A DNA stretch of 64,000 nt from Nitrosopumilus sp. Lineage in GTDB: Archaea; Thermoproteota; Nitrososphaeria; Nitrososphaerales; Nitrosopumilaceae. This document shows positions 25,021 to 50,533 of the stretch, piece after piece. Under the pieces are notes generated by a model. It made no database searches. It was not told where the DNA came from and saw only the letters and a program-made list of their open reading frames with translations. The stretch's first letter is position 1, and every line of letters begins with the position of its first letter. Location: contig OZ245040.1 of assembly GCA_965224195.1 (NCBI GenBank), positions 1,856,001 to 1,920,000 of the forward strand, written 5' to 3'. Position numbers and translations under genes: made by a program.

Positions 25021-25034
25021 GGTTATTGTTTAAG

Positions 25035-25080
25035 GGTTCTGTAAAGTCTAGGGTTGCTCTGAAATTGTAAAAATCGGTTG
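25035..25080 (+). repeat. Left terminal inverted repeat (bipartite TGTAAA..GGTT)
   Basis: GGTTCTGTAAAGTCTAGGGTTGCTCTGAAATTGTAAAAATCGGTTG. Confidence 0.9.
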
Positions 25081-25094
25081 TTTTTGTCAAGAAA

Positions 25095-26090
25095 CTAATT
25101 TTTTCTTAGGTATTTGTCATAATGTCTACCAGCACCTAATCGTCTACATTCTCTACATTTTGCATGTCCATCTGTTGAATCAATTGCAAGATTTTCTGGA
25201 ATCATCTTATGATTCTTTTCACAGTATTTCCGAATTGGTAATTTAGGTCTTGGATGATATGGAATATCTATTGCCCATGTTCCATCATATTGTGGGATTT
25301 GATATGATGAATTTTTAAGAGATTGTAATACACGTTTATGTTCAGACATTGCTTTTCTCCTAATGTCTTCACAGATTTTGCAACGTCTTTGGGTACTACA
25401 TTTTATAAGATTATCTTCTGTGTACAGATGACCACCTACTTTACAACCTTTTATTGATTCTGTTTTTTGTTTTCTTGCTATTGAAATATTTTTAGAATGA
25501 GTTACTAATTTTAGATGGTCAGGATTACAACATAATTTATTATTACATGTATGGTGTACTATCTTATCATCCGGAATTCTTTCTACAAACAACTCGAACA
25601 TTATTCTATGAGGCGATTGGGTTATTCCATCTCGTACCATTCTTGAATATCCATTCCCATGAGTTGCACCCATCCACATCCAACATTCATCTTTACCACA
25701 AATTGCAATTTTTTTAAGAATATTAAGAACAGCATTATCCATTGGTTTTTGTGTATAGATTATTTGTCGAGTTGATTCCTGCTCATCATATTCTTTATTC
25801 TTTTCTTCATTGTTTCCTTGCAATCTACCATTTTGTCGTATTGTTGTTGGTTCAAGATGATCAGGATTCACACATGCTTTATTATGGCATGTATGGTGCA
25901 GAAGAGGTGGCACATTTCCTTTGATTATTATGTAGACTACTCTATGAGCTAAACTCTCTTTTCCAAGTTTACAGTTACCATATCCTTTTTTCGTTAAAGC
26001 ACCTTTCCAATACCAACATGTAGATGTTTTCTCTATCTTTTCAAAAATTTTTTTATGTTTTAGGTTGTTAATGTTGTATTGATGCATCAT
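25095..26090 (-). CDS. Double HNH endonuclease (phage homing type) with C-terminal Zn fingers
   Basis: Two CWxWxG..GY..HR..HHTCxNKxCxNPDHL units and two CxxxH..CxxC fingers. Confidence 0.88.
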   Translation of the reverse strand: MMHQYNINNLKHKKIFEKIEKTSTCWYWKGALTKKGYGNCKLGKESLAHRVVYIIIKGNVPPLLHHTCHNKACVNPDHLEPTTIRQNGRLQGNNEEKNKEYDEQESTRQIIYTQKPMDNAVLNILKKIAICGKDECWMWMGATHGNGYSRMVRDGITQSPHRIMFELFVERIPDDKIVHHTCNNKLCCNPDHLKLVTHSKNISIARKQKTESIKGCKVGGHLYTEDNLIKCSTQRRCKICEDIRRKAMSEHKRVLQSLKNSSYQIPQYDGTWAIDIPYHPRPKLPIRKYCEKNHKMIPENLAIDSTDGHAKCRECRRLGAGRHYDKYLRKN

Positions 26091-26126
26091 ATTCTTTCTT
26101 GAAAATCTGTAGAACAGAATCTAAAA

Positions 26127-26540
26127 TTAACTAAAAATTATTGCAATTGTGCCTATAATCATTCCAGCAATAATAGAAATCTTTGTCCATCTGATTGTTT
26201 CATTATGTCTTTGTTCAGACCTAATATCCAAGTAAATTGAGTTTGTGTATGGAACAAACTTTGGTTTTTGTGTAGGTTTTTTTTGATATTTTTCTTCATT
26301 TGTAACTACCTCTAAATGATTAGGATTAACACATGAATGATTTTTACATGAATGATGCAATGATGAGCCATTTCTAATTTTGCCCTTTATTAATTCATAG
26401 ATAAATCGATGGGCGAGGTGGTTCTTATCTAAAAAATTTAATTTACCATAACCTGTCTTTGTTTTGACTCCTTTCCAATACCAACATGTGTAGGTGATAT
26501 CTACCCATTTCATAATTCTTGTAGGAATGATCAATATCAA
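26127..26540 (-). CDS. HNH endonuclease with C-terminal hydrophobic segment
   Basis: CWYWKG..GYG..AHR..HHSCKNHSCVNPNHL. Confidence 0.82.
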   Translation of the reverse strand: MILIIPTRIMKWVDITYTCWYWKGVKTKTGYGKLNFLDKNHLAHRFIYELIKGKIRNGSSLHHSCKNHSCVNPNHLEVVTNEEKYQKKPTQKPKFVPYTNSIYLDIRSEQRHNETIRWTKISIIAGMIIGTIAIIFS

Positions 26541-26626
26541 TCAATATTCTCAAATGTATTTATTTTTTATAATCAAGGCTAGACAATTCAAAATAAACTA
26601 CCATACAAAGTACTCATGTCATAGAT

Positions 26627-27178
26627 TTATTTTGTTTTCATTATTTTTTTATTCTTTTTTAAACACCGTTTACACAAAGGAACCCCTTGTTTTTCTTTAA
26701 TATGAATAGGAAACATCAAAGGTAGTTTAAAAATTTCATCATAATAGTCCAAGGCAAGATGAAAGTCTTTTGAATCAATAACAAAAGCATTTTCCATCTT
26801 GTGGATAATTTTTTCATTTATTTCTTTTCTTAATTTTGTCAAATTTGTATCAATGACACCATTCCTAATACAATCAGAACATATCTGAATTCCTCCCTTC
26901 CAGTGTTCATTCAAATTTTTGGCTAACATTCTAAAAACAGACGTATCTACAATGCGTATTGATAATGTAATAACGAATACACATTTTAATCGTGAATTCC
27001 ATGCACTGTTTTTGTGGTATTCCTCAACTGCTTCGCTTGCCATTGCCATTGGAATTATGATAAATTTGTGAGGCATTATCATTTTGCCATCTTTAACATG
27101 ACCGCCAGCTTTTCTTATCCAATCATTTGGAGATGTAATTAGATAATCATCTGATTTTACATTGTGTTTTTGAGTCAT
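26627..27178 (-). CDS. Hypothetical protein
   Basis: 183-aa ORF with two CxxC pairs. Confidence 0.6.
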   Translation of the reverse strand: MTQKHNVKSDDYLITSPNDWIRKAGGHVKDGKMIMPHKFIIIPMAMASEAVEEYHKNSAWNSRLKCVFVITLSIRIVDTSVFRMLAKNLNEHWKGGIQICSDCIRNGVIDTNLTKLRKEINEKIIHKMENAFVIDSKDFHLALDYYDEIFKLPLMFPIHIKEKQGVPLCKRCLKKNKKIMKTK

Positions 27179-27204
27179 GATGATGATGAAGAAAAGTCCG
27201 TAAT

Positions 27205-27804
27205 CTAATTGGCATCATGAAGTAATTTCCAATCTAATTTCTCAGCATTAGTTGGAGATACACAAGCCAGTTTTCCATTTGTTCTTTCAACTAGAACGTG
27301 TTTGTTATCACTACACTCTATTTCCTGAGCAGTCATTTTATTTTCTATTTGTTGTTTTAATGAAAAATCTCCACATGATTGATCTAGTATTGATATAGTC
27401 TGCCAGTTACCCCCTATAACAGAACCACCAATGATTTCTACATAATCAGAATCATTCACAGGTATTTCTAAATGATAAAAACAGTTGGATTCAGCTTCTT
27501 TAATTTCACTCCAAGATTCATCTGTTTGTATTGCTTGCAAACTAAGTCCAAAGTCCAAATTTGTTAATCTAGGCATTTCTTTTGGAATTGATATTTTGAC
27601 TGTACCATTAATAGATTCATCTAGTGTAATACTTCCCAAATCTAGCTCTTTTGAATCCCAATTAAGAGAAATGTCAGTAATGTGGTCACTGAATGTTGTA
27701 ATAGTGTAACCGTCAATAATGAAGGTATTTTTGGTTTCTGCATTAACATCAATTATGAAAAATCCAGATATTACAAACAAGGAAAGAAAAAATATCTTTA
27801 ACAT
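27205..27804 (-). CDS. Secreted hypothetical protein with Nitrosopumilus-type C-terminal Cys motif
   Basis: Signal peptide; C-terminus SLKQQ..C..HVLVERTNGKLACV...AEKLDW. Confidence 0.75.
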   Translation of the reverse strand: MLKIFFLSLFVISGFFIIDVNAETKNTFIIDGYTITTFSDHITDISLNWDSKELDLGSITLDESINGTVKISIPKEMPRLTNLDFGLSLQAIQTDESWSEIKEAESNCFYHLEIPVNDSDYVEIIGGSVIGGNWQTISILDQSCGDFSLKQQIENKMTAQEIECSDNKHVLVERTNGKLACVSPTNAEKLDWKLLHDAN

Positions 27805-27860
27805 TATTAAATCTCGATTTAATTTTATTTAATATTTATTAAGAAAAAAAAGAAAAAAGG

Positions 27861-28943
27861 TTATGGGAAATCCCATGTGAGACCTGTGAAATTGTCTGTT
27901 ATCTTATCGTGTTTTACATAATAGGAGTAAGATCCAGTTTGAGCGACCATTATTCCCAATAGTTCTGAACCATCATCACTAAAGACTCCAGCACCACTAT
28001 CACCACCTTGTACACTCACATCAGTTCTTACTACGCCGATCAAGTATTTACTATCAGATGGAATATAGAGATGTACATAGTGATTAGTTACCTCTCCATT
28101 TTCAATACCTGATTGTGATAATGAGCTCTTTACTGATTTACCCGTAAATGTAGAACCAGTTGATGAAGCATCAGCCATTCCATATGTTTCTCCGTCTGGA
28201 ATATCACCAGAAAGAGAATCTACGAATGCACAGTCACAATAGACGTATGTACCTGGGCTATAAAGCTCTTCTACTAAATCACCTATACGAGAACCATTTT
28301 GAGGATGTTCGGCATCTGTACCTACAGCTAATGCTGCAAAGCAATGTCCAGCAGTAATGAATCCTGCATCGCCATCATATGTTGCAGCAAATCCAACGGA
28401 ACATGGAAAAGTTTTTCCAGGCATCCCGATTTCTACACCACTTTCTACATCATCACAGTTAGTTCTACTGCTACAAGAAGTAAATGATGCTTCCTCCATT
28501 GGAGATATAGTTACATCAATACTATTTCCAACAATAGAACGAATGATTTTTTGATATTTTTTAATATCTTTCTCGTTAAATTCAGTTGGATTGATTGTTA
28601 CTTCTAGAGCGTTGTCATCATAATCATAACCAAGACTAGTCCAAGGAAAATAGTTTTTTGCATCCTTATCTGTGCCTTGATAGTTTTCCATCAATACATC
28701 TAAAAGTATATCTTGTTGAACTGTTACCTCACGTTCTGCATCCGGATCATATTTTTCTTTAAGATCGGATTTAGAGGCGTTAGCTTTTTCGGATGTTTTC
28801 TCAAAACTAGCTTTCTGTTTCACGATATCTTTACCTATTTTGTCAGCTGTCTCTGCTTCTGCAAAATTCATACTACTAAATGGAAGAATCATTGCAGCTA
28901 TCAGAGAAGCAAACAAAATTGTTTTTAGATTTTTGTTATACAT
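27861..28943 (-). CDS. Secreted S1 (chymotrypsin/alpha-lytic-like) serine protease
   Basis: Signal peptide KTILFASLIAAMILPFS; CSVGF..ITAGHC, DCAFV and GGDSG triad motifs. Confidence 0.88.
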   Translation of the reverse strand: MYNKNLKTILFASLIAAMILPFSSMNFAEAETADKIGKDIVKQKASFEKTSEKANASKSDLKEKYDPDAEREVTVQQDILLDVLMENYQGTDKDAKNYFPWTSLGYDYDDNALEVTINPTEFNEKDIKKYQKIIRSIVGNSIDVTISPMEEASFTSCSSRTNCDDVESGVEIGMPGKTFPCSVGFAATYDGDAGFITAGHCFAALAVGTDAEHPQNGSRIGDLVEELYSPGTYVYCDCAFVDSLSGDIPDGETYGMADASSTGSTFTGKSVKSSLSQSGIENGEVTNHYVHLYIPSDSKYLIGVVRTDVSVQGGDSGAGVFSDDGSELLGIMVAQTGSYSYYVKHDKITDNFTGLTWDFP

Positions 28944-29193
28944 GTTATTAGCCAATATCATTTTTGATGTTAATATAAGGCTTATTCAAAGTATGAGAAC
29001 CGTACTTCAAGGTAGTAGGAGGCTCATGGAAAGTATGAAAGTCACAAATAGTTGCTATTCCATTATATTTCATGGCAGGCTAGAAAGGAAAATAAAGTGA
29101 ATATTCCCAACCGGACATTCATCACAAATACCCTCAAAATTTGAAATGATGTTCAAGTCATTTGATACCTGCTTTTAAAATGTAATTTTAAGA

Positions 29194-29799
29194 TCATAAT
29201 CGATTTTCTAATACGTTAACTAATCCACATACAGGGCATTTTTTGGTTCGAAGATCCAATTCATATATTGTGTCTTTCTTTACTTCACCTTGCGGTTTTA
29301 GTTCTGTTATTATTTTCATCTCATCTTTGATGATTAAGAATTCTACATTTCCCTTGCAGTTACCGCAATATGCAATACCCATCATAGCATCTGCTGTAGA
29401 TCGTTCACTGAATCTGTTGTTAAACCAATAGTGACATTCATGGCACTGCACTGTCACAATATTATTTTTTACTGCTCCGACTGTAGCCATTGTTTGTTTC
29501 TTGCAATGAAAACACATATGTGAAATTTCATCATTTACCTGTGGAAAATATTTTTCAATATTGCTAGATACTGGCGGTTCTCCACGTAATGGAATTTTTA
29601 GATCTATTGGCTTTATTTCATGACATACTTTACAAATCCAAACTTTCTGTCTTTGCGGATTTGTTTCATCACTACCGTACACCTTGACCACATCCACATC
29701 CTTTGGATATGTCACTTTTACTTCATCCCTGCTCCCTACCTTAACAAATCCTATGATCATTGCATTATGATTTTGTTTACAGTCTGGAATTTTTGTCAT
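29194..29799 (-). CDS. Multi-CxxC zinc-binding hypothetical protein
   Basis: Five CxxC pairs in 201 aa. Confidence 0.65.
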   Translation of the reverse strand: MTKIPDCKQNHNAMIIGFVKVGSRDEVKVTYPKDVDVVKVYGSDETNPQRQKVWICKVCHEIKPIDLKIPLRGEPPVSSNIEKYFPQVNDEISHMCFHCKKQTMATVGAVKNNIVTVQCHECHYWFNNRFSERSTADAMMGIAYCGNCKGNVEFLIIKDEMKIITELKPQGEVKKDTIYELDLRTKKCPVCGLVNVLENRL

Positions 29800-29815
29800 T
29801 TTGTTTCACATGCAT

Positions 29816-30112
29816 TTAATTAATTATATTTCCTATTACCTGTAACAAAAATCCAGTCAATAACATTATTGTACCTAATAACGCATTGTCATAATCGTTA
29901 AGTGTTTTTTCTATATTTTTTTCATATTGTCTGATATCCAAATCCCTGTCCAATCCTTTTTGTATTTGTTCATCATCTACTTTGATCAGTTGGTACTTGA
30001 TGTGTCCTATATCAAGATCTTTTTTTGTTTGAAAAAATGTAGTTACTAATACTAAAGCCCCACCCATATCCAACAAAAGACCAACAATTATTAAAATTGT
30101 AAAATCAGACAT
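29816..30112 (-). CDS. Two-TM hypothetical protein
   Basis: GLLLDMGGALVL and GTIMLLTGFLLQVIG helices. Confidence 0.6.
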   Translation of the reverse strand: MSDFTILIIVGLLLDMGGALVLVTTFFQTKKDLDIGHIKYQLIKVDDEQIQKGLDRDLDIRQYEKNIEKTLNDYDNALLGTIMLLTGFLLQVIGNIIN

Positions 30113-30131
30113 TTTTTATTTAAAATTATAA

Positions 30132-30395
30132 CTATACGTGATTTGCCGTTTTATCATTAATACTATTCAAATCTTTTAGATCATAAATCAATACATTGCC
30201 ATTAATCATAATCTTTCTTCCTTTCTTAAATTTAAAATAATCATATAGTTTGTCTTTTGACAAAATTCCGATCAATGGAATTATGTGAATAATACAATCA
30301 TCTTTATCTGCAATAAAAGATTCAAAAGATCCAGGAGTACGTTTCCATTGATCAATAAGTTCCAACTTTGTAAATGAAAGGTATTGAATCGTCAT
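30132..30395 (-). CDS. Hypothetical protein
   Basis: 87-aa ORF in a run of co-oriented small genes. Confidence 0.5.
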   Translation of the reverse strand: MTIQYLSFTKLELIDQWKRTPGSFESFIADKDDCIIHIIPLIGILSKDKLYDYFKFKKGRKIMINGNVLIYDLKDLNSINDKTANHV

Positions 30396-30661
30396 ATGTT
30401 TTAAAACCCCTTTCCATCAATACTTTTAATCATTTTATCCGTCCGATGGTAATTATTTAGATTCTAATTCCCAAATTCTATCATTCATTTTATCAATATC
30501 TTTTTTTAATTCTGATATGTCATCTCTTCTATTTTCATCTAATTGGTATAGTTCCACTATTTTTTCTTCAATTGTTTTACTCATATTTATTCCCATATTT
30601 TATTAGGTTCTGTCAACTTGTTAGCACATAGGTACAGATCTTCTTCGTGTAAACAGTCGGC

Positions 30662-30832
30662 TTATTTGACTTTGTGGGGTCTAATTACTAGCTTATTTCG
30701 TTCTACAACTGATTCTAATTCTTCCCCACCATGCCAATGTAATTCTTCAATCTGTTCTTTTGGCAAAGTCACTACATATTTTGTATATTCAACATTTCCA
30801 ACTTTTCTATTGAATCTCTTTTGTAGTTTCAA
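30662..30832 (-). CDS. AbrB/MazE-type DNA-binding protein (56 aa, not in the ORF track)
   Basis: MKLQKRFNRKVGNVEYTKYVVTLPKEQIEELHWHGGEELESVVERNKLVIRP. Confidence 0.8.
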   Translation of the reverse strand: MKLQKRFNRKVGNVEYTKYVVTLPKEQIEELHWHGGEELESVVERNKLVIRPHKVK

Positions 30833-30864
30833 CTACTTTTTGATGATTCTAACTAGTATAAAAC

Positions 30865-30900
30865 TTAGGCACCTAAATACTTATATTGTTAGGTGCCTAA
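30865..30900. promoter_or_regulatory. Paired TTAGG(CA/TG)CCTAA operators flanking the TATA-like core of the divergent abrB/transposase promoter
   Basis: TTAGGCACCTAA at 30865-30876 and TTAGGTGCCTAA at 30889-30900; third copy at 33326-33337. Confidence 0.7.
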
Positions 30901-30908
30901 TAGACCAC

Positions 30909-32034
30909 ATGGAATGTAATAGAATAGATGCCGGAAAGAAAATATTTGAAAATCCAAACGTTCAGATTCTAAGATTAGATGATCACCATTACACAGTAAA
31001 ATCTCAAACTACAAATCGCAAGTATGATGTGATAAAAACTGAATCAGGATTTGTTTGTACTTGTCCTGATCATACATTTAGAAAGATTTGTTGCAAGCAT
31101 ATTCATGGTGTAGAATTTTCAATTAAATTCAGAGCAGAAGTTAGAGAAAGAAACAAAGTAATCATTGAGCAGATTGATTGTAACAACTGTCCAAAGTGTA
31201 AATCTCAAAATATTGTAAAACATGGAATTAGAAAAAACAAGTCAGGGAATCTTCAAAGATATTCATGCAAAGATTGTAGCAAATGGTTTGTCTTTAATTT
31301 AGGATTTAAAAATATGAGAAATAACCCTAAGGCAATTACATCTGCAATGCAGTTATACTTTACAGGAGAATCATTAAGAAATGTTCAACAATTCTTACGA
31401 CTCCAAGGTGTACAAGTTTCACACCAAACTGTTTACAAGTGGATTAAAAAATACACTAAACTTATGGAATCATATCTGGATAAGATTACTCCGCAAGTGG
31501 GTGACACTTGGAGAGCAGATGAGGTTTACACCAAGGTTAAAGGAAATATGAAATATCTATTTGCATTAATTGATGATGAGACAAGATTTTTGATTGCAAA
31601 GGAAGTAGCAGATAGAAAAGAAGGTCATGATGCATCAGGTTTATTCAAGCAAGCAAAAGAGAAAGCAGGTAAAATTCCAAAGGTAATGATTACTGACGGT
31701 TTACAGTCGTATAGCGAGGCTCACAAAAAGGAATTTTGGACTTAGTAAAAATCCAAGATCAATCCATGTTAGACACATTCACCTAAAGGGAGACATGAAC
31801 AATAACAAGATGGAGCGTTGGAATGGCTCTTTCAGAGATAGAGAAAAGGTCACTAGGGGATTGAAGAAAGCAGATTCCCCATTAATTTCAGGTTATCAGA
31901 TATTTTTCAATTATGTTCGTCCTCATTCTGCCTTATATGGAAAGACTCCTTCTGAGATGTGTGGAATTGAGATCAAGGGTGAAAATAAATGGTTGACGTT
32001 GATACAAAATTCGGTGAAAGAAAATGGAATATGA
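30909..32034 (+). pseudogene. IS6-like DDE transposase with SWIM and Zn-ribbon N-terminus, frameshifted near 31742
   Basis: CTCPDH..CCKH, CPKC..YSCKDC, WRADEVY, ITDGL, NNKMER; split into two ORFs by a 1-nt indel. Confidence 0.9.
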
Positions 32035-33321: not shown

Positions 33322-33394
33322 AAAATTAGGTGCCTAATCCACTATATAAGACGATCCTACTTAAAGCGACATAATCCTACTTTAGATACTCAAT

Positions 33395-33685: not shown

Positions 33686-33691
33686 AAAATT

Positions 33692-34007: not shown

Positions 34008-34193
34008 CATTTCACTGTTAACTACTACAAATAATGCTTTGATTGCAATTCGTAATTCATTTACAAACCACTTTAATTCCATAGGTAGTTTTGCGTCATC
34101 AGAAATTTTCGTCAGACGTTCATACCAATCATCATTTAATATTTCATCAAAACCTTGAATACTTTTAATGAAATCATCATCATAGTGTGTCAT
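34008..34193 (-). pseudogene. Small gene running into the nested element's right TIR
   Basis: The ORF reads ...VNSEM and then the TIR-derived GSVNLLAHRY. Confidence 0.55.
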
Positions 34194-34336
34194 TTTTTAT
34201 CTTTCACCCATCTCTCGATTGCTTTTTCAACTAACTCAGACACGTCAATATCTTCTTTGATAGCTTCTATCTTTGCTTTTTTCCATACATCAGGTCTTAC
34301 TTTGATCGATGTTGTAGTTCTTTCTACTTTCACCAT
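34190..34336 (-). CDS. Ribbon-helix-helix DNA-binding protein (48 aa, not in the ORF track)
   Basis: MVKVERTTTSIKVRPDVWKKAKIEAIKEDIDVSELVEKAIERWV; divergent from transposase 2. Confidence 0.8.
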   Translation of the reverse strand: MVKVERTTTSIKVRPDVWKKAKIEAIKEDIDVSELVEKAIERWVKDKK

Positions 34337-34395
34337 ATAATACCATACTACTCATAGTATATAATATTTTTCAAGAGTGTTTATGTAATAGTATT

Positions 34396-35524
34396 ATGTA
34401 CTACTACTAGTATAAATCCAAGACAAGAAAAAGGCAAACAAATAGCACTAAAATCAGATTTGATTAGAGTTTCAGACTATCATTATCATGTACATTCCCA
34501 GACTACCAATAGAGATTATGACGTTATCAGAGTAAATGAAAAATGGACGTGCACCTGTCCTGACCACAAGTATCGAAACAGAATTTGCTGTAAGCACATT
34601 CATGCAATAGAATTTTCAATCAAAATTAGAGAGGAGGTACGAGAAAGAAATAAGGTTACAATCGAACCTGTGACCATTGATTCTTGTCGCTTCTGTCATG
34701 GCAAGAACATTGTAAAAAATGGTGTTCGTAAAAACAAGCATACAGCAATTCAAAGATTCTCATGTTCAGATTGCCACAGAACATTCTCAATGAATCTAGG
34801 CTTTGAGAAGATGAAACACAATCCTAAAGGAATCACTACTGCCATGCAGTTGTATTTCTCAGGTGAATCATTAAGAAACGTGGCTAGATCCCTCAAACTT
34901 CTAGGCATGGATGTATCACACCAAACTATCTACAACTGGATTGAAAAATATACCAAACTCATGAATCAATACTTAGACAAGATAGTTCCCCAAGTAGGTG
35001 ATGCGTGGCGAGCTGACGAGATTTATGTAAAAATTCGTGGTGAATTAAAATATGTATTTGCAATGATGGATGATGAAACCAGATTCTGGATTGCTCAAGA
35101 AGTTGGTGACAGAAAAGAAGGACATAACGCAGGAGGGTTACTACAAAAGGCAAAACAAGTTACACAAACAAAACCTAAAGTGTTCATCACAGATGGTCTA
35201 GGATCATATCATGAAGCATACAAGAAAGAATTTTGGACATTGAAAAGACGTAACAGAACATTACACATCAGACATATTCACTTGCAAGATGACATGAACA
35301 ATAACAAGATGGAACGACTCAATGGAGAAATTAGAGATAGGGAAAAAGTAATGAGAGGAATAAAGAAAAAAGATTCAGTTACACTAACTGGTTATCAGTT
35401 GTTTCACAATTACATTCGACCACACAGTGCATTAGGTGGATTGACACCTAGTGAAAAATGTGGTATGGAGATTCAAGGAGACAATAAATGGATTACATTA
35501 ATTCAGAATGCTAGTAAGAAATGA
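34396..35524 (+). CDS. IS6-like DDE transposase with SWIM and Zn-ribbon N-terminus (start uncertain)
   Basis: CTCPDH..CCKH, CRFC..FSCSDC, WRADEIY, ITDGL, NNKMERLN. The body is intact; ATG 34396 is 1 nt out of frame and the first in-frame start is TTG 34460. Confidence 0.9.
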
Positions 35525-35803
35525 TTATTGATTATCTTGACAATGAACAAAGAACAGGATTTTTCTATCTCTCATTGGATTAATTACAACTTCTACTCTT
35601 CCATCAATGATAAACAACATGTGTCCTGCACTTTTTTGAACATGTGTACATTCAACAAATGCAGGATGTTTTTCAGGATGTTCAAATTCAACAATGTCTG
35701 TTTTGAATTTGGTTAGAAGATCTACGGAAGGATCAGAAACATACTCAATATTTACAAAATATTGTGACCACGTAGGTGTTTTACATGTCCAAAAACGAGT
35801 CAA
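35525..35803 (-). CDS. Hypothetical protein
   Basis: 92-aa ORF convergent on the transposase. Confidence 0.5.
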   Translation of the reverse strand: MTRFWTCKTPTWSQYFVNIEYVSDPSVDLLTKFKTDIVEFEHPEKHPAFVECTHVQKSAGHMLFIIDGRVEVVINPMRDRKILFFVHCQDNQ

Positions 35804-36057
35804 TATGTAACAAAAACTACTGAGGGATTAAATATCTACTTCTTGATCTTCCGTATGCGTCTCAAATTTCTTAGATGATTCTTGTGCTATTTTGAAATGA
35901 CGTTCTTCCCAATGTCTTTTCTCGGATTCCATGTTATAATGTAACATAATACATGTTATAAATTTTCGAAGTTTTACAACAATCACACACGATTATTAAG
36001 AAATTTACATAATCTTAATAATATTTGATATTTGGACGGTACCACTCAAATCTCCAT

Positions 36058-36105
36058 CAACTGACTTTTTACGCCTATTTTATCAACCGTAGGCTTTACA
36101 GAACC
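36058..36105 (-). repeat. Internal right-end TIR copy R1
   Basis: rc GGTTCTGTAAAGCCTACGGTTGATAAAATAGGCGTAAAAAGTCAGTTG. Confidence 0.85.
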
Positions 36106-42264: not shown

Positions 42265-42615
42265 ATTCAAAATTTGTTAGAACAAAATATTGGTGAATAT
42301 TTAAAGATGAATTTATTAAAACATTCCAAATGATTAATTGACTTATATTAGTAAATTCTAAATTATTTTATGATTCAATATATTGTAGTGGGTCTTGTAG
42401 GATTGGGATTGCTTATCTTGTATCTGGTGATTAATTCTGGTATAAATCAGGCAGTTAATCCATAATCATAACAACCAAAAATTTACAATTTTAAAGCAGA
42501 TTAATTGTTCTGAATAAATTAAGATATTCAAATAAAGTTTAATTTTTTGTTGACTAGTACAATAAAATCAGCGATCAAAAAATGATTATAGTGATATTAA
42601 CACAAAGAAGTAGAT

Positions 42616-44058
42616 TTGTCTTCCAATACATTATCATCAAATCCAAAATTATTCTTTGAAAAAGGTTCCATCCGTATTGAAGATAGTAAACTAATCCGAA
42701 TCCCAAATACAAAATACGATGATAGGACCAAATCTCTCAGATCTTATGGTTTGAATTATCAAGAAATTATCGAATATCTGAAAAAAAGTGATTTGGATTT
42801 TATTGATAACGTGCCTGATTTCATACCATCTCAGGTATTTCAAATGAAAAATTTAGAACTAAGGGATTATCAACTACAAGCCATACAAAATTGGGAAAAA
42901 TCATCCATGAGAGGTTGTGTTATTTTACCTACGGGTGCTGGAAAAACTGCAATAGGAATTAAAGCAATTGAGAAAGTAAATGCGTCTACATTGATAGTAG
43001 TTCCAACAATTGATTTAATGGAACAGTGGACAAACAACATTACCAAATATCTCTCAACCGATAGTCAAAATCCTCAAGGTATTTCTGTTGGAAAATTAGG
43101 AGGAGGAGAAGATAACCTTCAGGCAATCACGGTAACAACATATGATTCTGCATATCTTCGTGCATCAACCATAGGAAATCAATTCAAATTAATAATTTTT
43201 GATGAAGTGCATCATCTGCCCGCATCTGGATACCGTTCAATTGCAGAACAATTCATTTCACCATACAGATTAGGTCTCACTGCGACAATAGAGCGAGAAG
43301 ATGAATTACATGAATTAATTCCATATCTTACTGGAGGAGTTGTGTTTCGTCTGGGGTCTCAAGAACTCTCAGACCAAAAACATTTGGCAGAATATAGCAT
43401 AGATAGAATTCAAGTAAACCTTACTCCAGAAGAACAAGAAGAATATGAGACTAATCACACAAAATTCTTGACAAATCTAAGACAGTTAGGGTTCAAGGTT
43501 CCATCAATGTACAATCTCAAACGATTAATCATGATGTCAAACAAAAACAAGATTGCAAGGGAAGCAATGCTTGCAAGAAACAAAGCAAATGAGATTGCAC
43601 TAAACAGTCAATCAAAGATAGATGAATTACAAAAAATCCTACAACAAAATAAAAATACAAAGACGATAATCTTTACACAGAATAACAAAATGGTCTATGA
43701 ACTTTCAAATAGATTTCTTATTCCATATATCACTTACAAGACAATAAAGGAAGAAAGACGAGATGTTTTGGAGGGATTCAAGTCTGGCAGATACAATGCA
43801 GTTGTCACCTCCAGAGTACTAGATGAGGGAGTAGACGTTCCTGATGCAGAATTAGGCATAATTATGAGTGGAACCGGTAGTGGACGAGAATTTATACAGA
43901 GGCTTGGCCGGATTCTAAGGCCAAAACAAGATGGCAGAAAGGCAAGGCTAATTGAACTGGTTTCAAAACACACACGAGAAACAAACACCAGTGCAAAAAG
44001 AATAACGGCACTGAACAAAAATTCTACGAATCAAGATTCATCATCCTATGGAGTGTAA
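42616..44058 (+). CDS. xpb: XPB-like SF2 DNA helicase
   Basis: LRDYQ, LPTGAGKT, DEVHH, GLTATIERED (RED motif), EGVDVP, QRLGRILR. Confidence 0.9.
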   Translation: MSSNTLSSNPKLFFEKGSIRIEDSKLIRIPNTKYDDRTKSLRSYGLNYQEIIEYLKKSDLDFIDNVPDFIPSQVFQMKNLELRDYQLQAIQNWEKSSMRGCVILPTGAGKTAIGIKAIEKVNASTLIVVPTIDLMEQWTNNITKYLSTDSQNPQGISVGKLGGGEDNLQAITVTTYDSAYLRASTIGNQFKLIIFDEVHHLPASGYRSIAEQFISPYRLGLTATIEREDELHELIPYLTGGVVFRLGSQELSDQKHLAEYSIDRIQVNLTPEEQEEYETNHTKFLTNLRQLGFKVPSMYNLKRLIMMSNKNKIAREAMLARNKANEIALNSQSKIDELQKILQQNKNTKTIIFTQNNKMVYELSNRFLIPYITYKTIKEERRDVLEGFKSGRYNAVVTSRVLDEGVDVPDAELGIIMSGTGSGREFIQRLGRILRPKQDGRKARLIELVSKHTRETNTSAKRITALNKNSTNQDSSSYGV

Positions 44059-44103
44059 TGTGTTGTCTGACAAAATAACAAAAATAATTGGGAGTCCGTT
44101 CTA

Positions 44104-45756
44104 ATGCTTTCATCTGAATTATTACGTACCAAAATTAGTAGAGGTAAGATAACACCATTATTTTGTACTGCGAACTTTGGTAATGGTACTGATTACGAAC
44201 TTGCAAACAAACTCATTGTATTTTTTACAAATACACAAAAAGATAGACAATGTAAAGTGGAACTGTTACAAAAGATCAGATTACTTGAATCCGAATATGA
44301 TTACAAGTTAGTACGTGGGTTTTTTGCATTGTTAGAGAGGCGTTCTATTTTTGGACGATTAAACACATCATCATCTATTGCAACTCCCATACTCATAAGA
44401 CAGAAATTGTTTGAGGAATCCTCAAAGCAGGGTTTGGCTTTGTCTGATTCCCAGAGACAAGACATCATACAGAGAATCGCAGATCAGATGCATATTTCAT
44501 CAGAAAATGTTGAAACTATCATGTGGAGTGATAAAGATGAGAATTTGATATTGACACAATTTGACACCATCAATCCCAAAGATCTAATTTTATGGTATAA
44601 TCTTTCATTATTCCAAACACTTCTTTTCAAATGCACTAGATTGGAATTTTATGTAAAAGGTGGGTTGTATTGGAAACAAGTTCTGCGAAATGTTAAGAGA
44701 TATGGTCTTATGTATAATTTGGAATATTATTCAAAGGATATTTCAGATGAAGAAAAAGAAGATTCCATCAAATGTACTCTAGAAGGCCCTTTCAGTCTCT
44801 TCAAAATGACTGATAGATATGGTACATCAATGGCCAAATTATTACCCTCGATTGTAGGCACGCCCATCTGGAAAATCAATGGTTCTATAGTGAAAAAAAC
44901 AGATGATGGTCAAAAAATCTATTCATTTGAATTATCAAATGAAAGTACTAAAGAATTTCTTCGCTCAACAATAGAGTCTCCGTACCAAAATGAGAATGAT
45001 TACGTTTATGACAGTTCTACAGAAGCCACATTTGCAAAGAGATTCCAGCAACACTTTGATCAGAGTGACAAATTTGGTTGGAAAATTTCTAGAGAACCTG
45101 ACCCATTGATTGCAGATGGCAAAGCCATGATTCCTGATTTTCTTTTTGAAAGATTTGGACGTAAAGTGTATTTTGAAATTGTGGGATTTTGGACAAAAGA
45201 ATATCTTGAGAGAAAAGCTGCTAAGTTAAAAGTGCTATTTGATGATGATAACAAAAATGTTGATTTGTTGGTAGCAGTAAATTCTGAATTGGCATGTTCA
45301 CAGATTGAAACAATTTCTAAAGATAAGATTTTTACTTTTCAAAAAGATGTTTCAATCAAGCCTATTTTAGAACATTTAAAAAAAATTGATGCTGAAATAA
45401 TTGAAGAAAAGATTCACACCAAAATAAAACTTGATGAAAAAAATCTAGATTTAATTTCTATAAAACAAGTTGCTCTTGAAAATTCTCTTCCAGAGGCAGC
45501 AACATTAAAGATTCTTTTGGCGGATTATCCAGATGAGTATGTTATAGCAGGAAAATATTTGGTTTCAAATAAGAAAATCAATGTAATAGAGAAAAATATT
45601 GGTGGAATTTCAAAGTTTGTAGAGGTTTGTAAGATATTGACATCACAAAAAATCCCCGATTCATGTCATGCTGATTTACTATCAAAAATGGACTATGACG
45701 TAGTTTGGGAGAATTTGGATCCTAATCACGCCAAAATATCAAAACGTGCAGCATAA
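44104..45756 (+). CDS. bax1: Bax1/DUF790 endonuclease
   Basis: MLSSELL, GPFSLF..TDRYG, YDSSTE, IPDF, EIVGFWTKEYL; directly downstream of xpb. Confidence 0.88.
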   Translation: MLSSELLRTKISRGKITPLFCTANFGNGTDYELANKLIVFFTNTQKDRQCKVELLQKIRLLESEYDYKLVRGFFALLERRSIFGRLNTSSSIATPILIRQKLFEESSKQGLALSDSQRQDIIQRIADQMHISSENVETIMWSDKDENLILTQFDTINPKDLILWYNLSLFQTLLFKCTRLEFYVKGGLYWKQVLRNVKRYGLMYNLEYYSKDISDEEKEDSIKCTLEGPFSLFKMTDRYGTSMAKLLPSIVGTPIWKINGSIVKKTDDGQKIYSFELSNESTKEFLRSTIESPYQNENDYVYDSSTEATFAKRFQQHFDQSDKFGWKISREPDPLIADGKAMIPDFLFERFGRKVYFEIVGFWTKEYLERKAAKLKVLFDDDNKNVDLLVAVNSELACSQIETISKDKIFTFQKDVSIKPILEHLKKIDAEIIEEKIHTKIKLDEKNLDLISIKQVALENSLPEAATLKILLADYPDEYVIAGKYLVSNKKINVIEKNIGGISKFVEVCKILTSQKIPDSCHADLLSKMDYDVVWENLDPNHAKISKRAA

Positions 45757-45787
45757 CTAATTATTGTATGATTGGAGGATTGAAAAA

Positions 45788-45834
45788 TAATCGAAAATTT
45801 ACAGTATAAAAGCAACTCTGGACTTTACAGAATT
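45788..45834 (-). repeat. Degenerate internal right-end TIR copy (terminal GG replaced by AA)
   Basis: rc AATTCTGTAAAGTCCAGAGTTGCTTTTATACTGTAAATTTTCGATT aligns with the left TIR. Confidence 0.75.
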
Positions 45835-45960
45835 GAACAACATCATGTATTAAGAACATGGGCAAGGAAAAATAATGCTCATTTTCACATACGAATTTGT
45901 AATGTTTGATTTGAGTCTAACATAATACTCGATCTAAAATTCTGTGAGGAAATGAAGTAA

Positions 45961-46927
45961 ATGTCTAGAAAAACAAAAAGTAGTTTGTAGTTATTGTAAA
46001 AAATTATTTGATAAACCAATAAGACGTATTAAAAAATGTAAAAACCATTTCTGTTTAGATGAATGTCGACTAAAATTTGAGCGTAAAGGACAACCGTATA
46101 ATAACGTTATTTGTAATTATTGTAGAAAATCTTTTCATAGAAAACCGTCATGGATTAAAAAAACAAAAAAACACTTTTGTTCAGAAATATGCAAATACAA
46201 AGGGCAGGTTAAACTTGCAAGTAAAAAATGTAAAAAATGTAAAGAATTTTTTACAGACATTCCATCTAAAATGAAAAAACGTGAGTTCTGTTCGGATTAT
46301 TGTAAATCACATTTTGAACTATTACATGGTCCATGTACTGTTTGTAAAAGAAAAGAATCCAATAAATGGCTTAAACATCCTCTTAAAAAAAATAAAACGG
46401 TTTGTACAACATGTTATCATAGAATAAAAAGTAATGCGGGCAGAAAAGGTAAATGTACAAAATGTAAAAAAACAAAATCATATCAATTCAATTATGTTGA
46501 AGGAAAACAATATTGTAAGAAATGTTATAATGAAATTTATAATACTTTAAATCAAAAAGTAAAATTAAGAGCATCACAAAAATACAATCTAAAATATTAT
46601 GATAGAACAGCTCATTATTTTCCAAATTTGACTTCGAGTCAAATGTCTTGGTTAGATAAAAGTTGGTCAAGTAACATAAAATTACAAGATGATATGAGAT
46701 GTAAGATTTGCAAAGGTTTTCCGAATTTTAGTCATCATATAATCGAAAAAGAAAAATACAAACTTTTTAGATTTTTTTCCAACAATGGAATTACATTATG
46801 TCAAATTTGCCATCATCACGTTCATGTAATTAACATGCGCATACAATTGAATTGGAATGAGATCGAGAAACAAATTAATCTAATCCAAAGGATTTTCCCA
46901 TCTTTTCATTACTTGTATTTACCTTAG
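45961..46927 (+). pseudogene. Multi-zinc-finger HNH endonuclease, frameshifted just after its start
   Basis: The frame of 46271-46927 is open back to about 45980 with repeated CxxC..FCxxxC fingers; C-terminal CKIC..HHI..NGITLCQICHHHVH. Confidence 0.75.
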
Positions 46928-46983
46928 ATTGAGATAAGATCATTGAAAAATCAGATGATTTTTGACAGTCTAATTATTCATAA

Positions 46984-47029
46984 GCAACCGAATTTTACAG
47001 AAAAAAGTAACCGTAGAGTTTACAGAACC
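46984..47029 (-). repeat. Internal right-end TIR copy R2
   Basis: rc GGTTCTGTAAACTCTACGGTTACTTTTTTCTGTAAAATTCGGTTGC; followed by TGTTTGAG. Confidence 0.88.
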
Positions 47030-47088
47030 TGTTTGAGGGTACTGTTATCCCTGACGGGGGTTGTTCCTAGTATTACCTAGCGGTTGAT

Positions 47089-47367
47089 TTATCTTAATTT
47101 GTTATTCAAATATTCGATTGCTTTTTGTGTGTCGTGATCTAATTCGATTAAAGCTAAGATTGCTTCATTTTCAGTAGAATCTGTTTTAGTCATGACAAAA
47201 GCAACATCCTCTTGCGATGGGATTAATTCAATTGAATCCGAATAAGGCTCTTCATAACCGCCATCTTTATTTGTCCATCCACTTTCAGATGGATTTTGAA
47301 TCATAATTGAAACTAAAATAATAACTGCAATTACACCAATAATGATTGGGATTATTTTTTTATTCAT
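47089..47367 (-). CDS. Membrane-anchored protein with NAC-type UBA-like domain
   Basis: N-terminal TM; EDVAFVMTKTDSTENEAILALIELDHDTQKAIEYL. Confidence 0.65.
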   Translation of the reverse strand: MNKKIIPIIIGVIAVIILVSIMIQNPSESGWTNKDGGYEEPYSDSIELIPSQEDVAFVMTKTDSTENEAILALIELDHDTQKAIEYLNNKLR

Positions 47368-47500
47368 GATTAGAAAAAAATGACATTGTTTAGTAAATGT
47401 TCAAATGGTCTATTTAGTAGATTAATGATTACAACAGGGATTAATAGTGCAAAAGTATTTGTAGGATTTTTTGAATTCAAAACAATTCTTTTCAATATAA

Positions 47501-47746
47501 TTATTTATTATTTTGTTTTAATTTAGGAATTATTACTTTTCTGAAATAGTGAACTGAGAGAATTATTCCAATTGTTATGATTAGTATTGGATAAAATGTT
47601 TTAAAAAATACAAAATAGGTGTCAAGTGGACCGTTATTGATAGTGACAGTCCAAAACATTCCTCCAAGATCAGATCTTATTATTAGCAAAAGTGGAATTG
47701 TAAAAAATACTACCAATGCAATTAATATTTTTTTGAATAGTTTCAT
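47501..47746 (-). CDS. Two-TM hypothetical protein
   Basis: 81-aa hydrophobic ORF. Confidence 0.55.
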   Translation of the reverse strand: MKLFKKILIALVVFFTIPLLLIIRSDLGGMFWTVTINNGPLDTYFVFFKTFYPILIITIGIILSVHYFRKVIIPKLKQNNK

Positions 47747-47760
47747 AATAAAAAAAGAGA

Positions 47761-48291
47761 TTAGGAGATTAATAAGCCTCCATTAATCCAACCTAATTGA
47801 ACACCAGTGTTGTTACCATATTCATTATCTAGGATAATGATGGTCCACAAACCAGGACCGAAATTAGAACATGATGTACTGTCAGTGCCCGTAGAAGATA
47901 ATTTCTCTGTATGGCATGCTCGACCTAAACCAGGATCTATTCCAGGCCACCAGCTAGTAAGAATATAGTGTTTCTCAGTTGTTCTATCATGATTAAATGT
48001 TACACAGTCAGACCAAGGAAATGCTCTCTCTGAGAATGTACTTGGATAACTAAATGTGGAGCTTATTGTTGCTGCACCACTGATCCAAGACTTGAAGTTA
48101 GTTACTACAGAGCCTGATACATTTTGGTTTGTACTACAATCAGTTTCAGATTGTGTGTGAGTAGTTGTTAAATTAACATCTACCGTACTATATGACATTA
48201 TAGTTGGACCATTAAATGAACTGTGAGAGTCTAAGGTTGGGATAGTTTCTACAACTTCATCGTCATATGTTGCCTCTAATTCATCAGCATA
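47761..48291 (-). pseudogene. Secreted-type protein, 5'-truncated by IS1595
   Basis: Ser/Thr/Cys-rich coding sequence extends toward the IS boundary with no signal peptide or start. Confidence 0.55.
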
Positions 48292-49196
48292 AACTAATTC
48301 TGTCTAATTATTGGACAAAAGAATCAACTTAATTGAGTTATCCAAAATAGTTTCAACTAAATCAACATCGTTAGAATTTCTGTGTAAAAGATTCAACAGT
48401 ACAAATTCTGTATGTTGTCCCAAGTGTGATTCTGAAAAACATTATCTGATGAGTAGGGGAAATCTGAGATGTGGTAAATGCAAGACAAACTACAAGCCAT
48501 TTTCAAACACACAATTTGACAAAATCAATATCGATTATTCAAAATGGTTGGTTCTAATCAAACTCTTTGAACTTGGAATTAGTGCAAGACGTGCAGCAAG
48601 AGAAGTTGGCATCAGTTATCCTACTGCATTGCATTCTTTTGATGTAATGAGATTTTCAATCTTGGAGGAACAATCCAAAACAGATGATATTCTAAAGGGT
48701 CAAATTGAGGCTGATGAGGCATATTTTGGAGGAAAAAGGAAGGGAAATCGTGGTAGAGGCGCAAAAAACAAAACTATCGTTTTTGGAATTTTGGAGAGGA
48801 ATGGAAAGGTTCACGTTGAGATTGTAAAGATTGTAAAGGCAAAAACTTTGCTTACAAGTACCATCAAGAAAGTAAAGAAAGAAGGCATCGTGTACACTGA
48901 CAAGTGGAGAGGATATGATTCTCTAATTTTCAACGGATACAAACATCTCTCAGTTGATCACAGCAAGATGTTTGGTAAAGGTGATGTGTACATAAACGGC
49001 ATTGAGGGATTTTGGAGTTTTGCAAAAGAGAACATGGCAAAGCATCATGGAGTAAGTCCAGGAAAGTTTCTGTTATACATTAAAGAGATGGAATGGAGAT
49101 ACAACAACAGAGATGAGGATACTTTCTCATTATTGCTAGATTATATGTTGGGGGTAAATAATTGATAATCACCTCAGTTATTATCAGAATGTAGTT
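48292..49196 (+). mobile_element. IS1595-family insertion sequence (ends approximate)
   Basis: Imperfect IR AACTA-ATTCTG / CAGAATGTAGTT around the transposase; both neighbours are truncated. Confidence 0.7.
48311..49165 (+). CDS. IS1595-family (ISXO2-like) transposase
   Basis: CPKC..CGKC, EADEAYFGG, YTDKWRGY, INGIEGFWS, EWRYN. Confidence 0.92.
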   Translation: MDKRINLIELSKIVSTKSTSLEFLCKRFNSTNSVCCPKCDSEKHYLMSRGNLRCGKCKTNYKPFSNTQFDKINIDYSKWLVLIKLFELGISARRAAREVGISYPTALHSFDVMRFSILEEQSKTDDILKGQIEADEAYFGGKRKGNRGRGAKNKTIVFGILERNGKVHVEIVKIVKAKTLLTSTIKKVKKEGIVYTDKWRGYDSLIFNGYKHLSVDHSKMFGKGDVYINGIEGFWSFAKENMAKHHGVSPGKFLLYIKEMEWRYNNRDEDTFSLLLDYMLGVNN

Positions 49197-50420
49197 GAAC
49201 CTGACAATCTATCCACATGGTCTCCTCTAGAAGTACATAAGTCTAGTTATGGCAGGAATTATTTTAAAACAACAACAAATATTCTTTCACCTGGTGAATA
49301 TACTGCAATAATCTTCAATGAAAATACTGAAATCAAGAAGAATTTTACCATATTAGATTCTAAATGCTGTAGGCCACTTTCTGTTAGTGTTGAAAGACCA
49401 AGTGCATATTTGCCAGGAGAAGAATTTCAAATTTTTGTACAATCAACCCCAAATACCGAACTTGTTTTTAATTTAATTGATCCTGATGGGAAAATTTCTA
49501 AAACTAGAGATATAATGACAAATCAAATAGGTGAAATTGATTGGCAATATTTTACCCTCTCAAGAATTGCTACACCTGGAATATGGACATTTGAAGTAAC
49601 CGATGGGAATCATTTTGATTCTGTTCCACTAATTGTTACTCCAACACCTGATGACTTAATCAAAAAATCATCAACTGAAACAGAAATACAAACATCATAT
49701 GATGATATTCTGACAAATAAAGAACCAACACAGAGCATTCTTCTTACATCATCTCTTGAACCCTTTATTGATGATGGCAGAGAAAGACAAATTGCCACGT
49801 TACACCGTGGTGGACCCCCTCAATTCCAATATTTGCAAATTATGGATTCTTACAAAGCAGGATTTGATGTCAATGACAAAGGAATTGTCATATATACTGA
49901 AACTCCTCATGAGAATTATTCTTTAAATCATAAACGAGGATTTTATCTTGAAGATTGGTTGCCAGACAAAATTCCAGACGGTCAAAAATTATTGTATGCA
50001 ATAACGGGTTGTGATACTGAGAAAATAAATGAAAGCATCTATGAATCTTATTATGCAGGATATACTTTTGTTCCCAGTTATTTTGTATTGAATGAAAATG
50101 TCACCCAGTATGATTTGTATTATGGAGAAGGATTTACTATTCATATAACATATGATGATTTACAAGATGAAATCGAGAACATTATTGAAGAATCAAAAGA
50201 AAGATTTGCTGAAACATATAAAGGATATGGAGGATATCATGAAATGATGCGAGATGGAAAATCAGTACTTGTATTTGATGGTGGACATCATTATGATCAT
50301 GAACATGCACGTATATTTTGGATTTTTGATGATAAATTTAGCATATCTGTGCATTCCTATTACTACACACTTGATGAGTTAATTCCAATCTTTGAGAGCA
50401 TAATGAATGAAGCTGTTTAG
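49197..50420 (+). pseudogene. Extracellular Ig/MG2-like protein, 5'-truncated by IS1595
   Basis: The frame is open for 71 codons upstream of TTG 49410 to the IS end; LIDPDGK..PGIWTFEV. Confidence 0.65.
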
Positions 50421-50440
50421 AAAACTAATATTGATTATCA

Positions 50441-50487
50441 GTAACCGATCTTTACAGAAAAAAAGCAACCCTAGAGTTTACAGAACC
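50441..50487 (-). repeat. Right terminal inverted repeat R3
   Basis: rc GGTTCTGTAAACTCTAGGGTTGCTTTTTTTCTGTAAAGATCGGTTAC, followed by the TSD TGTTTAAG. Confidence 0.92.
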
Positions 50488-50533
50488 TGTTTAAGAAATT
50501 GATCGTGAAATAATAAAAATATTCTAAAATAGA

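Follow-up and report, generated by a model that had tools for sequence, protein, structure and literature searches.

A 25-kb island between radA and rps30e in Nitrosopumilus, best read as a product of site-selective IS6-like transposons

Does a large block of accessory genes, closed by inverted ends and a short target duplication, record one transposition event or the repeated use of one chromosomal position? The question is raised by a 25,453-bp block that separates radA from the gene for ribosomal protein S30e (rps30e) in a 64,000-nucleotide stretch of Nitrosopumilus sp. contig OZ245040.1 (herein the window). An earlier reading of the window (the initial annotation) had taken the block to be a giant IS6-type transposon that moved as one unit. 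A comparison of the locus across the genus suggests instead that the block is most plausibly a hotspot island, the largest known, produced by site-selective IS6-like transposons. As judged from sequence, the notable result is the transposon family itself, which is site selective, carries cargo, and has a SWIM zinc finger. The host genome (G000; 2.07 Mb) encodes archaeal AmoA, and the host is therefore an ammonia-oxidizing archaeon; the other G numbers used below denote congeneric species, of which the set holds 151.

The radA–rps30e site across the genus

The block lies between two exact copies of TGTTTAAG (25027 through 25034 and 50488 through 50495). Inside them, the left end (25035 through 25058) reads GGTTCTGTAAAGTCTAGGGTTGCT and the right end (50464 through 50487) is its inverted match at 23 of 24 positions, with a single G/C difference; over 45 nt the complementarity is still 82%, and a second TGTAAA..CGGTT site falls within that stretch. 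These ends and the exact 8-mer on both sides are as the initial annotation had described them. The outer-end 24-mer is found four times in the window at three or fewer mismatches, compared with no occurrence in 100 shuffles, and G000 holds no copies of it beyond those four.

Both flanks of the block were searched across all 151 species, the left being matched in 142 and the right in 132 (in a set of 41 genomes, including G000, the left flank was matched in 36 and the right in 33). Site states were assigned by hand from the flank-match coordinates; ~114 species are classifiable, and ~37 are not (flanks on separate contigs, one flank missing, or diverged gene order). In G005, G019, G012, and others the two flank matches overlap by precisely the 8-mer: the empty site of G005 reads ...TTATAAGGTTAT-TGTTTAAG-AAAATGATCG..., while G019 has a single TGTTTGAG and G012 a single TGTTTTAG. 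The empty site with one 8-mer that the initial annotation had anticipated in relatives is thus present, and removal of the block does rejoin the radA promoter to the rps30e 3′ region, since relatives join the two directly through one 8-mer; the spacer without the block is 82 nt.

Exact overlap by a single 8-mer is seen in 59 species, and 17 more are empty-like (gap ≤60 bp). Remnants of 46 to 121 bp occupy the site in four species, inserts of at least 1 kb are found in ~24 of the ~114 classifiable species (G000 included), and the flanks are inverted or far apart in ~10. One intergenic 8-mer is therefore occupied in about one-fifth of the classifiable species of an abundant genus of marine ammonia oxidizers. 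The sequences of 22 occupied sites were retrieved, together with three of the four small remnants; G153 is represented by coordinates only.

Perfect 8/8 duplications combined with IS6-type ends lie at the identical position in 10 species besides the window. Nine of these hold intact elements, ranging from 46 bp to 7875 bp. The duplication is TGTTTTAG in G083 (46 bp, two fused ends), G116 (2646 bp), G069 (3270 bp), G088 (4182 bp), G159 (7056 bp), and G073 (7875 bp, a size taken from flank-match coordinates); it is TGTTTAAG in G014 (4775 bp), TGTTTTGA in G166 (2179 bp), and TGTTTGAC in G054 (2767 bp). The tenth species, G164, has the duplication TGTTTAAA, with ends that are now 869 kb apart. Counting G000, apparently independent insertions with perfect duplications at this single target position are recorded in 11 species, and at least 12 different left-end sequences abut the radA–rps30e junction. 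Among the closest relatives (93 to 97% flank identity), G108, G046, G075, and G131 are empty, and G015, G017, and G164 are filled, each with a different end. Ends like those of the block (type A) occur in 12 of the 151 species, several of them at the radA junction (G015, G076, G088, and G154). For five type-A ends away from the hotspot (G157, G154a, G086, G069:C19, and G007), a partner with a matching 8-mer within 20 kb inward was found in none, so well-formed units are documented mainly at the radA site.

These junctions make the 8-bp position between radA and rps30e an insertion hotspot for varied IS6-like transposons, which is the main finding. The comparison shows a family of IS6-like DDE transposons that inserts at one 8-bp target, TGTTT(A/T)AG, duplicating the 8 bp. 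The target sits in the 82 nt that separate the radA core promoter from the rps30e 3′ end; the ends of the family read GGTTCTGT-AA and are accompanied by the second, subterminal TGTAAA..CGGTT site.

The elements at the site are not limited to transposition genes. G073 carries the HsdS and HsdM genes of a type I restriction-modification system and a proteasome-like gene, and G159 carries a GmrSD-HNH nuclease and an IS5-type transposase; across the genus, IS6-type elements at the radA site carry restriction-modification, nuclease, and XPB-Bax1 genes. A single pair of inverted ends around transposase and cargo, with one duplication, describes the block and also the elements of G088, G073, and G159. 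The class of unit transposons proposed in the initial annotation is upheld to the extent that cargo elements with such ends and 8-bp duplications recur (10 other species at the radA site alone); its extension to a single move of the whole block is not.

Two of these loci have further features. The 46-bp element of G083 (contig C52) consists of nothing more than two fused inverted ends within its perfect TGTTTTAG duplication and is a natural minimal substrate. In G164, neither junction has been lost: the one on the radA side (TGTTTAAA/GGTTCTGTCAAATT...) lies at C1:953533 and the one on the rps30e side (...CTACAGAACC/TGTTTAAA) at C1:1822642, in the same orientation; the arrangement reads as a large rearrangement that split the element at the radA site.

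The SWIM-domain transposase and its relatives

The uninterrupted transposase gene of the block had been placed at 34396 through 35524. That start is out of frame; the ORF (open reading frame) runs from a TTG at 34460 to 35524 and encodes 354 aa, the true start being uncertain, with homologues that begin ~17 codons upstream. The protein combines a SWIM domain (20.9 bits; cut-off 19.6), a zinc-binding domain of IS1/IS1595 type, and an IS6 DDE domain. The last matches Pfam DDE_Tnp_IS240 at 67 bits (cut-off 27) over positions 2 through 137 of 139, and the NCBIfam IS6 model (NF033587) at a borderline 127.7 bits (cut-off 125). The assignment to IS6-type ends with an 8-bp duplication and SWIM-finger IS6 transposases, made in the initial annotation, is supported by the ends and by these matches.

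Copies or remnants 43 to 95% identical to the window transposase sit in the site inserts of 14 of the 24 loci searched, which indicates that the transposase family travels with the site elements. Of the 12 genomes, G000 among them, whose site insert has a full-length transposase, 10 show the orientation seen in the window, and G069 and G113 show the opposite one; a transposase remnant at the site in G014 is also opposite. Strict orientation specificity is ruled out by this count.

G000 contains 28 transposase matches. The complete autonomous relatives of the element measure 2646 to 4182 bp and have three to four ORFs; the small single-ORF format (~0.7 to 0.9 kb) is not seen among them. Elsewhere in G000, an IS6-type element of 2351 bp (C1:421593 through 423943) has a perfect 8-bp duplication, AATAATTA, and ~1.25 kb beside the transposase gene, and a 779-bp deletion derivative (C1:99841 through 100619) has a perfect 8-bp duplication, GATTGATA. 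Antisense and upstream of the transposase, the 2.5-kb insertion sequence (IS) encodes a 48-aa RHH-like ORF (weak Omega_Repress match) and a partner ORF of ~120 aa (34190 through 34336 and 33894 through 34193 in the window; also G000:C1:1428700 through 1429500). In G088, G159, and G014, the transposase is followed by an antisense ORF of 91 aa that is conserved. The RHH-like, partner, and antisense ORFs may be accessory or addiction genes of the IS.

One move or growth in place

The claim that 25.45 kb moved as one unit fits poorly with the interior of the block, which is a mosaic of segments each closed by a right-type end, with nested or truncated ISs and an internal 8-mer (Table 1). Six right-type ends were counted against two or three left-type ends. 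The initial annotation was right about the outer pair, about the distances from the ends to the nearest transposase genes (5.9 kb and 15 kb), and about the number of ORFs (~30), and left the internal ends unlisted: right-type ends at 36082 through 36105, 42471 through 42497 (inner half only), 45798 through 45834 (tip mutated to AATTCTG), and 47006 through 47029, the type B pair 30606/34007, and the left-type end at 47038.

The block reads as two tandem elements because the right end R47029 is followed by TGTTTGAG, which differs from the outer duplication by one base, and then by a left-type end, GGTACTGTT. On these junctions G000 is shown to hold at least two tandem elements, 25035 through 47029 and 47038 through 50487, which would have the middle 8-mer in common. 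At 47038 the left-type end reads GGTACTGTTATCC, which is similar to the sequence that closes the G142 element on its right (GGTTCTGTTATC). In G166, an element with TGTTTTGA on both sides adjoins a solo left end that is also found in G089 and G048, and we read this as unambiguous tandem reuse of the target. The corresponding junction of G015 runs from the right end through TGTTTAGGTAC to TGTTTAAG. It is most simply explained as a remnant of the 47029/47038 junction of the window, derived from an ancestral middle TGTTTAAG by one 2-bp deletion.

The history of the XPB helicase and Bax1 nuclease genes bears on the same point. The pair is usually viewed as a repair module. It is present at the radA site in G000 and in three relatives (G015, G154, and G017) and at other loci in G069 and G158. 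Compared with 42.5 to 45.8 kb of the window, G015 (91%) and G154 (85%) hold the XPB-Bax1 unit as their only part of the block, with its right end directly at the right junction; the window has 45835 through 50487 added beyond that unit. The presence of the unit alone at the same junction in these two species therefore indicates growth in place. The unit lies within the insert in G017. At the G069 and G158 loci further right-type ends stand before or after it; a pattern of right end, unit, and right end again is repeated in both. From these patterns the pair appears to behave as mobile cargo ending in an IS6-type end, and the part comprising XPB-Bax1 and 47029/47038 was probably at the radA locus before 45835 through 47029 was added.

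Nor is the outer duplication proof of a single 25-kb move, because the target has been reused by many different elements. On balance we think it rather probable that the block is an island assembled in place at a transposon hotspot and not one giant mobile unit, and we favor assembly in place over a single en-bloc move. In the mechanism we envisage, the SWIM-IS6 transposase would cut with an 8-bp stagger at a favored position that immediately precedes the radA TATA/BRE region, where insertion would be tolerated because both radA and rps30e are spared. The first element would have been enlarged by nesting (30606 through 34007, and the IS1595 element) and would also have gained units, each consisting of a segment and one right-type end, placed precisely at the outer tip of a resident right end. 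The candidate junctions of such additions are 34007/34008..36105, 36105/36106.., ..42497/42498..45834, and 45834/45835..47029. Such units could have been joined to resident ends much as IS26 does in targeted conservative or translocatable-unit integration; alternatively, deletions could have extended outward from an end. On this view the outermost pair of ends and its duplication would be relics of ordinary insertions, and the pair may still mobilize the whole block.

Several observations weigh against assembly in place. The outermost pair of ends is the best matched: 23 of 24 positions agree, against 21 of 24 for 25035 with 47029 and ~13 of 24 for 47038 with 50487. The outer 8-mers are also identical to each other but not to the internal one. 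Precisely this pattern would result if a composite that was tandem from the start had moved once. The case for independent insertions is made by the differing end sequences and the flank identities, and that for end-targeted joining by junction anatomy; serial tandem insertion followed by deletions would leave similar arrays, and islands could have been exchanged between strains by recombination in the flanks. In addition, no determinant of target choice was found, and the orientation bias is modest (10 of 12).

The strongest competitor, which we nonetheless consider unlikely, is accordingly a giant unit transposon: 25,453 bp preassembled elsewhere and inserted in one step through the ends at 25035 and 50487, with creation of the TGTTTAAG duplication. 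Besides the similarity of the outer ends and the 8/8 duplication, it draws support from the internal TGTTTGAG, which is the empty-site allele of G019 and would fit a composite that arose at this position in a different strain before it moved; from the uninterrupted transposase inside the block; and from the existence of elements up to 7.9 kb with ends, duplication, and cargo. Against it, a second copy of the composite, whole or partial, was found neither in G000 nor in the 151 species or a metagenome scan. In that scan the exact left junction (32 nt) had no matches, the exact 24-nt end was found on two contigs, both matching the two G069 loci, and no intermediate states of the island were obtained. 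With a target so heavily reused, identical flanking 8-mers are to be expected even if the block never moved as a whole. The XPB-Bax1 unit at the same junction in G015 and G154, together with the 47029/47038 remnant of G015 and its simple derivation from TGTTTAAG, implies that part of the block was probably already local.

It is less probable still that the island arrived from another strain by homologous recombination in radA and rps30e, its ends recording events in the donor lineage. The substrates exist, with flanks 85 to 97% identical across species; occupied and empty states are mixed among the closest relatives, and the XPB-Bax1 identities (85 to 91%) roughly follow those of the flanks. 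Such an exchange leaves unexplained at least 12 end types at the same 8 bp, with their own perfect duplications.

An assembly artifact or chance repeats can be dismissed almost outright, given that none of the 100 shuffles reaches the observed matches, that contigs from independent runs bridge the right and internal junctions (42835 through 49127, and 49145 through 51100 onward, with zero differences), that every left-junction word sampled occurs in two runs, and that homologous structures exist in other genomes. The sequencing data compared here are assembled contigs of short-read runs rather than raw reads; the contigs stop at repeated parts (34008 through 37000, 40745 through 41193, and 49127 through 49145), which carries no evidential weight.

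Table 1. Features of the block and of its flanks, in window coordinates
Feature	Position	Strand	Remark
Rad51/RadA gene	23800–24990	−	Pfam Rad51, 295 bits
Left copy of the 8-bp target duplication, TGTTTAAG	25027–25034		Relatives with an empty site have one copy
Outer left inverted end (type A), GGTTCTGTAAAG..., with second TGTAAAAATCGGTT site	25035–25079	+	
Cargo segment 1: two HNH_3 homing-endonuclease-like genes, weak trypsin-like peptidase, zinc-ribbon proteins, unknowns	25095–30395	−	
Type B element (3.4 kb, nested) whose 69-nt inverted ends agree at 90% (GGTTCTGTCAAC...)	30606–34007	+	
Left-truncated 2098-bp IS copy: cut partner ORF, 48-aa RHH-like ORF, transposase, 92-aa ORF, right end	34008–36105	+	
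Uninterrupted SWIM, zinc-ribbon, and IS6 DDE transposase	34460–35524	+	354 aa from TTG; true start uncertain
Internal right-type end, GGTTCTGTAAAGCCTACGGTTGAT	36082–36105	−	
5′-truncated duplicate (99% falling to 89%) of the gene at G000:C1:44702–45657	36106–37131	+	First base lies directly beyond 36105, where the end stops
Cargo segment: DUF7226 protein, winged-helix protein, HNH nuclease, metallophosphoesterase, unknowns	37224–42470		
Inner half of a right-type end, tip missing	42471–42497	−	Intact end at the equivalent place in G069
XPB helicase (42616–44058) and Bax1 nuclease (44104–45756) unit	42498–45834	+	Degenerate right end at 45798–45834
1.2-kb unit with 218-aa ORF	45835–47029	+	Ends in right end 47006–47029; not in the G015 version
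Internal 8-mer, TGTTTGAG	47030–47037		7/8 match to the outer duplication; read as a duplication shared by two tandem elements
Second tandem element: small ORFs, IS1595 transposase (48311–49165), 336-aa ORF, outer right end	47038–50487	+	
Outer right inverted end	50443–50487	−	
Right copy of the duplication, TGTTTAAG	50488–50495		
Ribosomal protein S30e gene	50534–50716	−	Pfam Ribosomal_S30

Within the block, the type B element contains a broken IS6 transposase (~30909 through 31745 plus 31795 through 32034) and three ORFs, and its flanking 8-mers, TTTTATTA and CATTTCAC, mismatch. The adjoining segment (34008 through 36105) is 99.4% identical over 2098 bp to G000:C1:1426912 through 1429009; in that twin copy the partner ORF continues uncut and a left end follows 433 bp beyond, which identifies the window copy as a left-truncated IS. 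G+C content is 0.28 to 0.35 in the block and ~0.34 to 0.35 in the flanks, and no clear foreign signature is seen in the base composition of the one relative to the other. PADLOC found no complete known defense system in the block; it reported helicase-level similarity of the XPB protein to PbeA, along with homing-endonuclease and HNH matches.

Some parts are shared with the rest of the chromosome. Residues 36106 through 36859 of the window sequence are 99% identical to G000:C1:44904 through 45657, 36311 through 36859 are likewise 99% identical to C1:1019407 through 1019955, and 40627 through 41193 are 94% identical to C1:286806 through 287364; each is a nearly identical partial copy of a chromosomal gene. 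Just left of the XPB-Bax1 unit lies a 27-nt palindrome (42046 through 42089; TAGTATACTA repeats), and contigs from one run stop on either side of it. Ends of a second type, G(G)TAC(A)CTGTTC.., occur 7 to 8 bp from a type-A right end in the window (47030 through 47050), in G069:C19, and in G007, and the G142 element has one as its left end; such right/left junctions, back to back, may be a recurrent, possibly active structure.

Known systems and the choice of target

The elements at the radA site share with the IS6/IS26 family (IS26, IS257, and IS1216) a DDE transposase that matches IS6 models and an 8-bp duplication. The outer (GGTTCTGTAAAG/C) and internal ends of the block begin with GG and contain the cTGTt/caaa motifs of the consensus given in the parts of PMC7986276 used here, and the placement of array units directly against a resident end is reminiscent of the targeted conservative or translocatable-unit integration described there for IS26. 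They differ from the family in several respects. Autonomous forms measure 2.6 to 4.2 kb with three to four ORFs, as opposed to ~0.8 kb and a single ORF; SWIM and zinc-ribbon domains are present at the N terminus of the transposase; each end spans ~45 nt and has a second subterminal site; cargo lies inside one inverted-end pair and not between directly repeated IS copies; and one chromosomal site is strongly preferred. Nor does the block have the form of an IS26-type pseudo-compound transposon, as its transposase genes are in mid-block (30909 through 35524) and its boundaries are bare ends. Several IS6-like copies in G000 are without duplications, and a truncated gene abuts an end; both could at most be indirect signs of replicative cointegrate formation with resolution by host recombination. 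The IS6-family membership of archaeal and long-transposase elements has itself been questioned, in the portion of Harmer & Hall 2019 (PMC6807381) drawn on here.

As presented in the sections of Varani et al. 2021 (PMC7986276) consulted, ISDsp3 is the only "transporter IS" of the IS6 family, with one hypothetical passenger gene and one copy. Like the elements described here, ISDsp3 has its passenger gene inside IS6-type ends; unlike it, they carry up to ~27 nontransposase ORFs and form a recurrent class.

Tn7-like transposons at attTn7 insert repeatedly at a conserved, harmless intergenic position beside an essential gene, carry varied defense cargo, and form tandem arrays. The radA-site elements resemble them in reusing a single conserved intergenic position, in their varied defense-type cargo, and in their tandem arrays (compare the abstract of PMC8649781). 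In contrast, TnsABCD-type genes were not found: domain searches of the block proteins yielded no Tns-like genes, and the elements have a lone IS6-type transposase, an 8-bp duplication, and an orientation bias of 10 of 12. Thaumarchaeal casposons, found in the same group of organisms, also have terminal inverted repeats, target duplications, site preference, and tandem integration (from the relevant passages of Krupovic et al. 2019; PMC6563490), but depend on a Cas1 integrase and PolB, neither of which was seen in the domain searches of the block.

The same paper (PMC6563490), in the statements available to us, reports that transposons with passenger genes were undetected in archaea, thaumarchaea included, and that thaumarchaeal IS-like elements have one to two genes. 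The targeting passages of the IS6 review (PMC7986276) give no chromosomal preference beyond integration next to another IS copy. In the portions of the literature covered, the hotspot, the SWIM-IS6 elements, and thaumarchaeal IS6-type cargo transposons are undescribed, although the supplementary lists of PMC6563490 might include some. More tentatively, the SWIM/zinc-ribbon proteins could form an IS6-like archaeal clade that combines Tn7-like targeting of a safe position immediately before the radA core promoter with one-ended cargo capture at resident ends, giving defense and repair islands of up to 25 kb that are still mobile as a whole through their outermost ends; if true, no earlier DDE transposon system that both carries cargo and selects its site would have been described in archaea. 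The system is tractable for asking how a simple DDE transposase chooses its site and how variable islands form in streamlined archaeal genomes, and it might supply a tool for site-directed insertion in archaea whose manipulation is difficult.

IS911 and IS30 are reported, in work cited by PMC7986276, to insert at sequences similar to their ends, which might offer a precedent for the choice of a fixed site by a DDE transposase. The target GGTTATTGTTTAAG resembles the end tip if an indel is allowed, which is not better than chance as far as shown. Two candidate rules, that the target mimics the end tip or that it lies at a fixed distance from the TATA box, were not borne out at five other IS6 sites in G000, which leaves them unproven rather than false, and no motif was found to be common to those five sites and the radA target. 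The G154a site resembles the radA flank at 13 of 19 positions.

The locus and its relatives show some further features. The radA–rps30e spacer contains the 8-mer, the TATA/BRE region, and an ACCGTATAGTACGGT palindrome. The radA 3′ end and downstream region (23800 through 23966 of the window) match two to three overlapping places in G017, G021, G012, and G009, which suggests a short tandem repeat there in several relatives. In G009, a right-type end (C1:1759780 through 1759803) and a left-type end (C1:1844135 through 1844158) face an 84-kb stretch, and both are flanked there by CGCTAGAA. That these are directly repeated copies, as in an unresolved cointegrate, was rejected, the only match between them being one inverted match of 1.1 kb; our guess is that abutted ends fused a replicon into the chromosome, for which the pattern is as expected.

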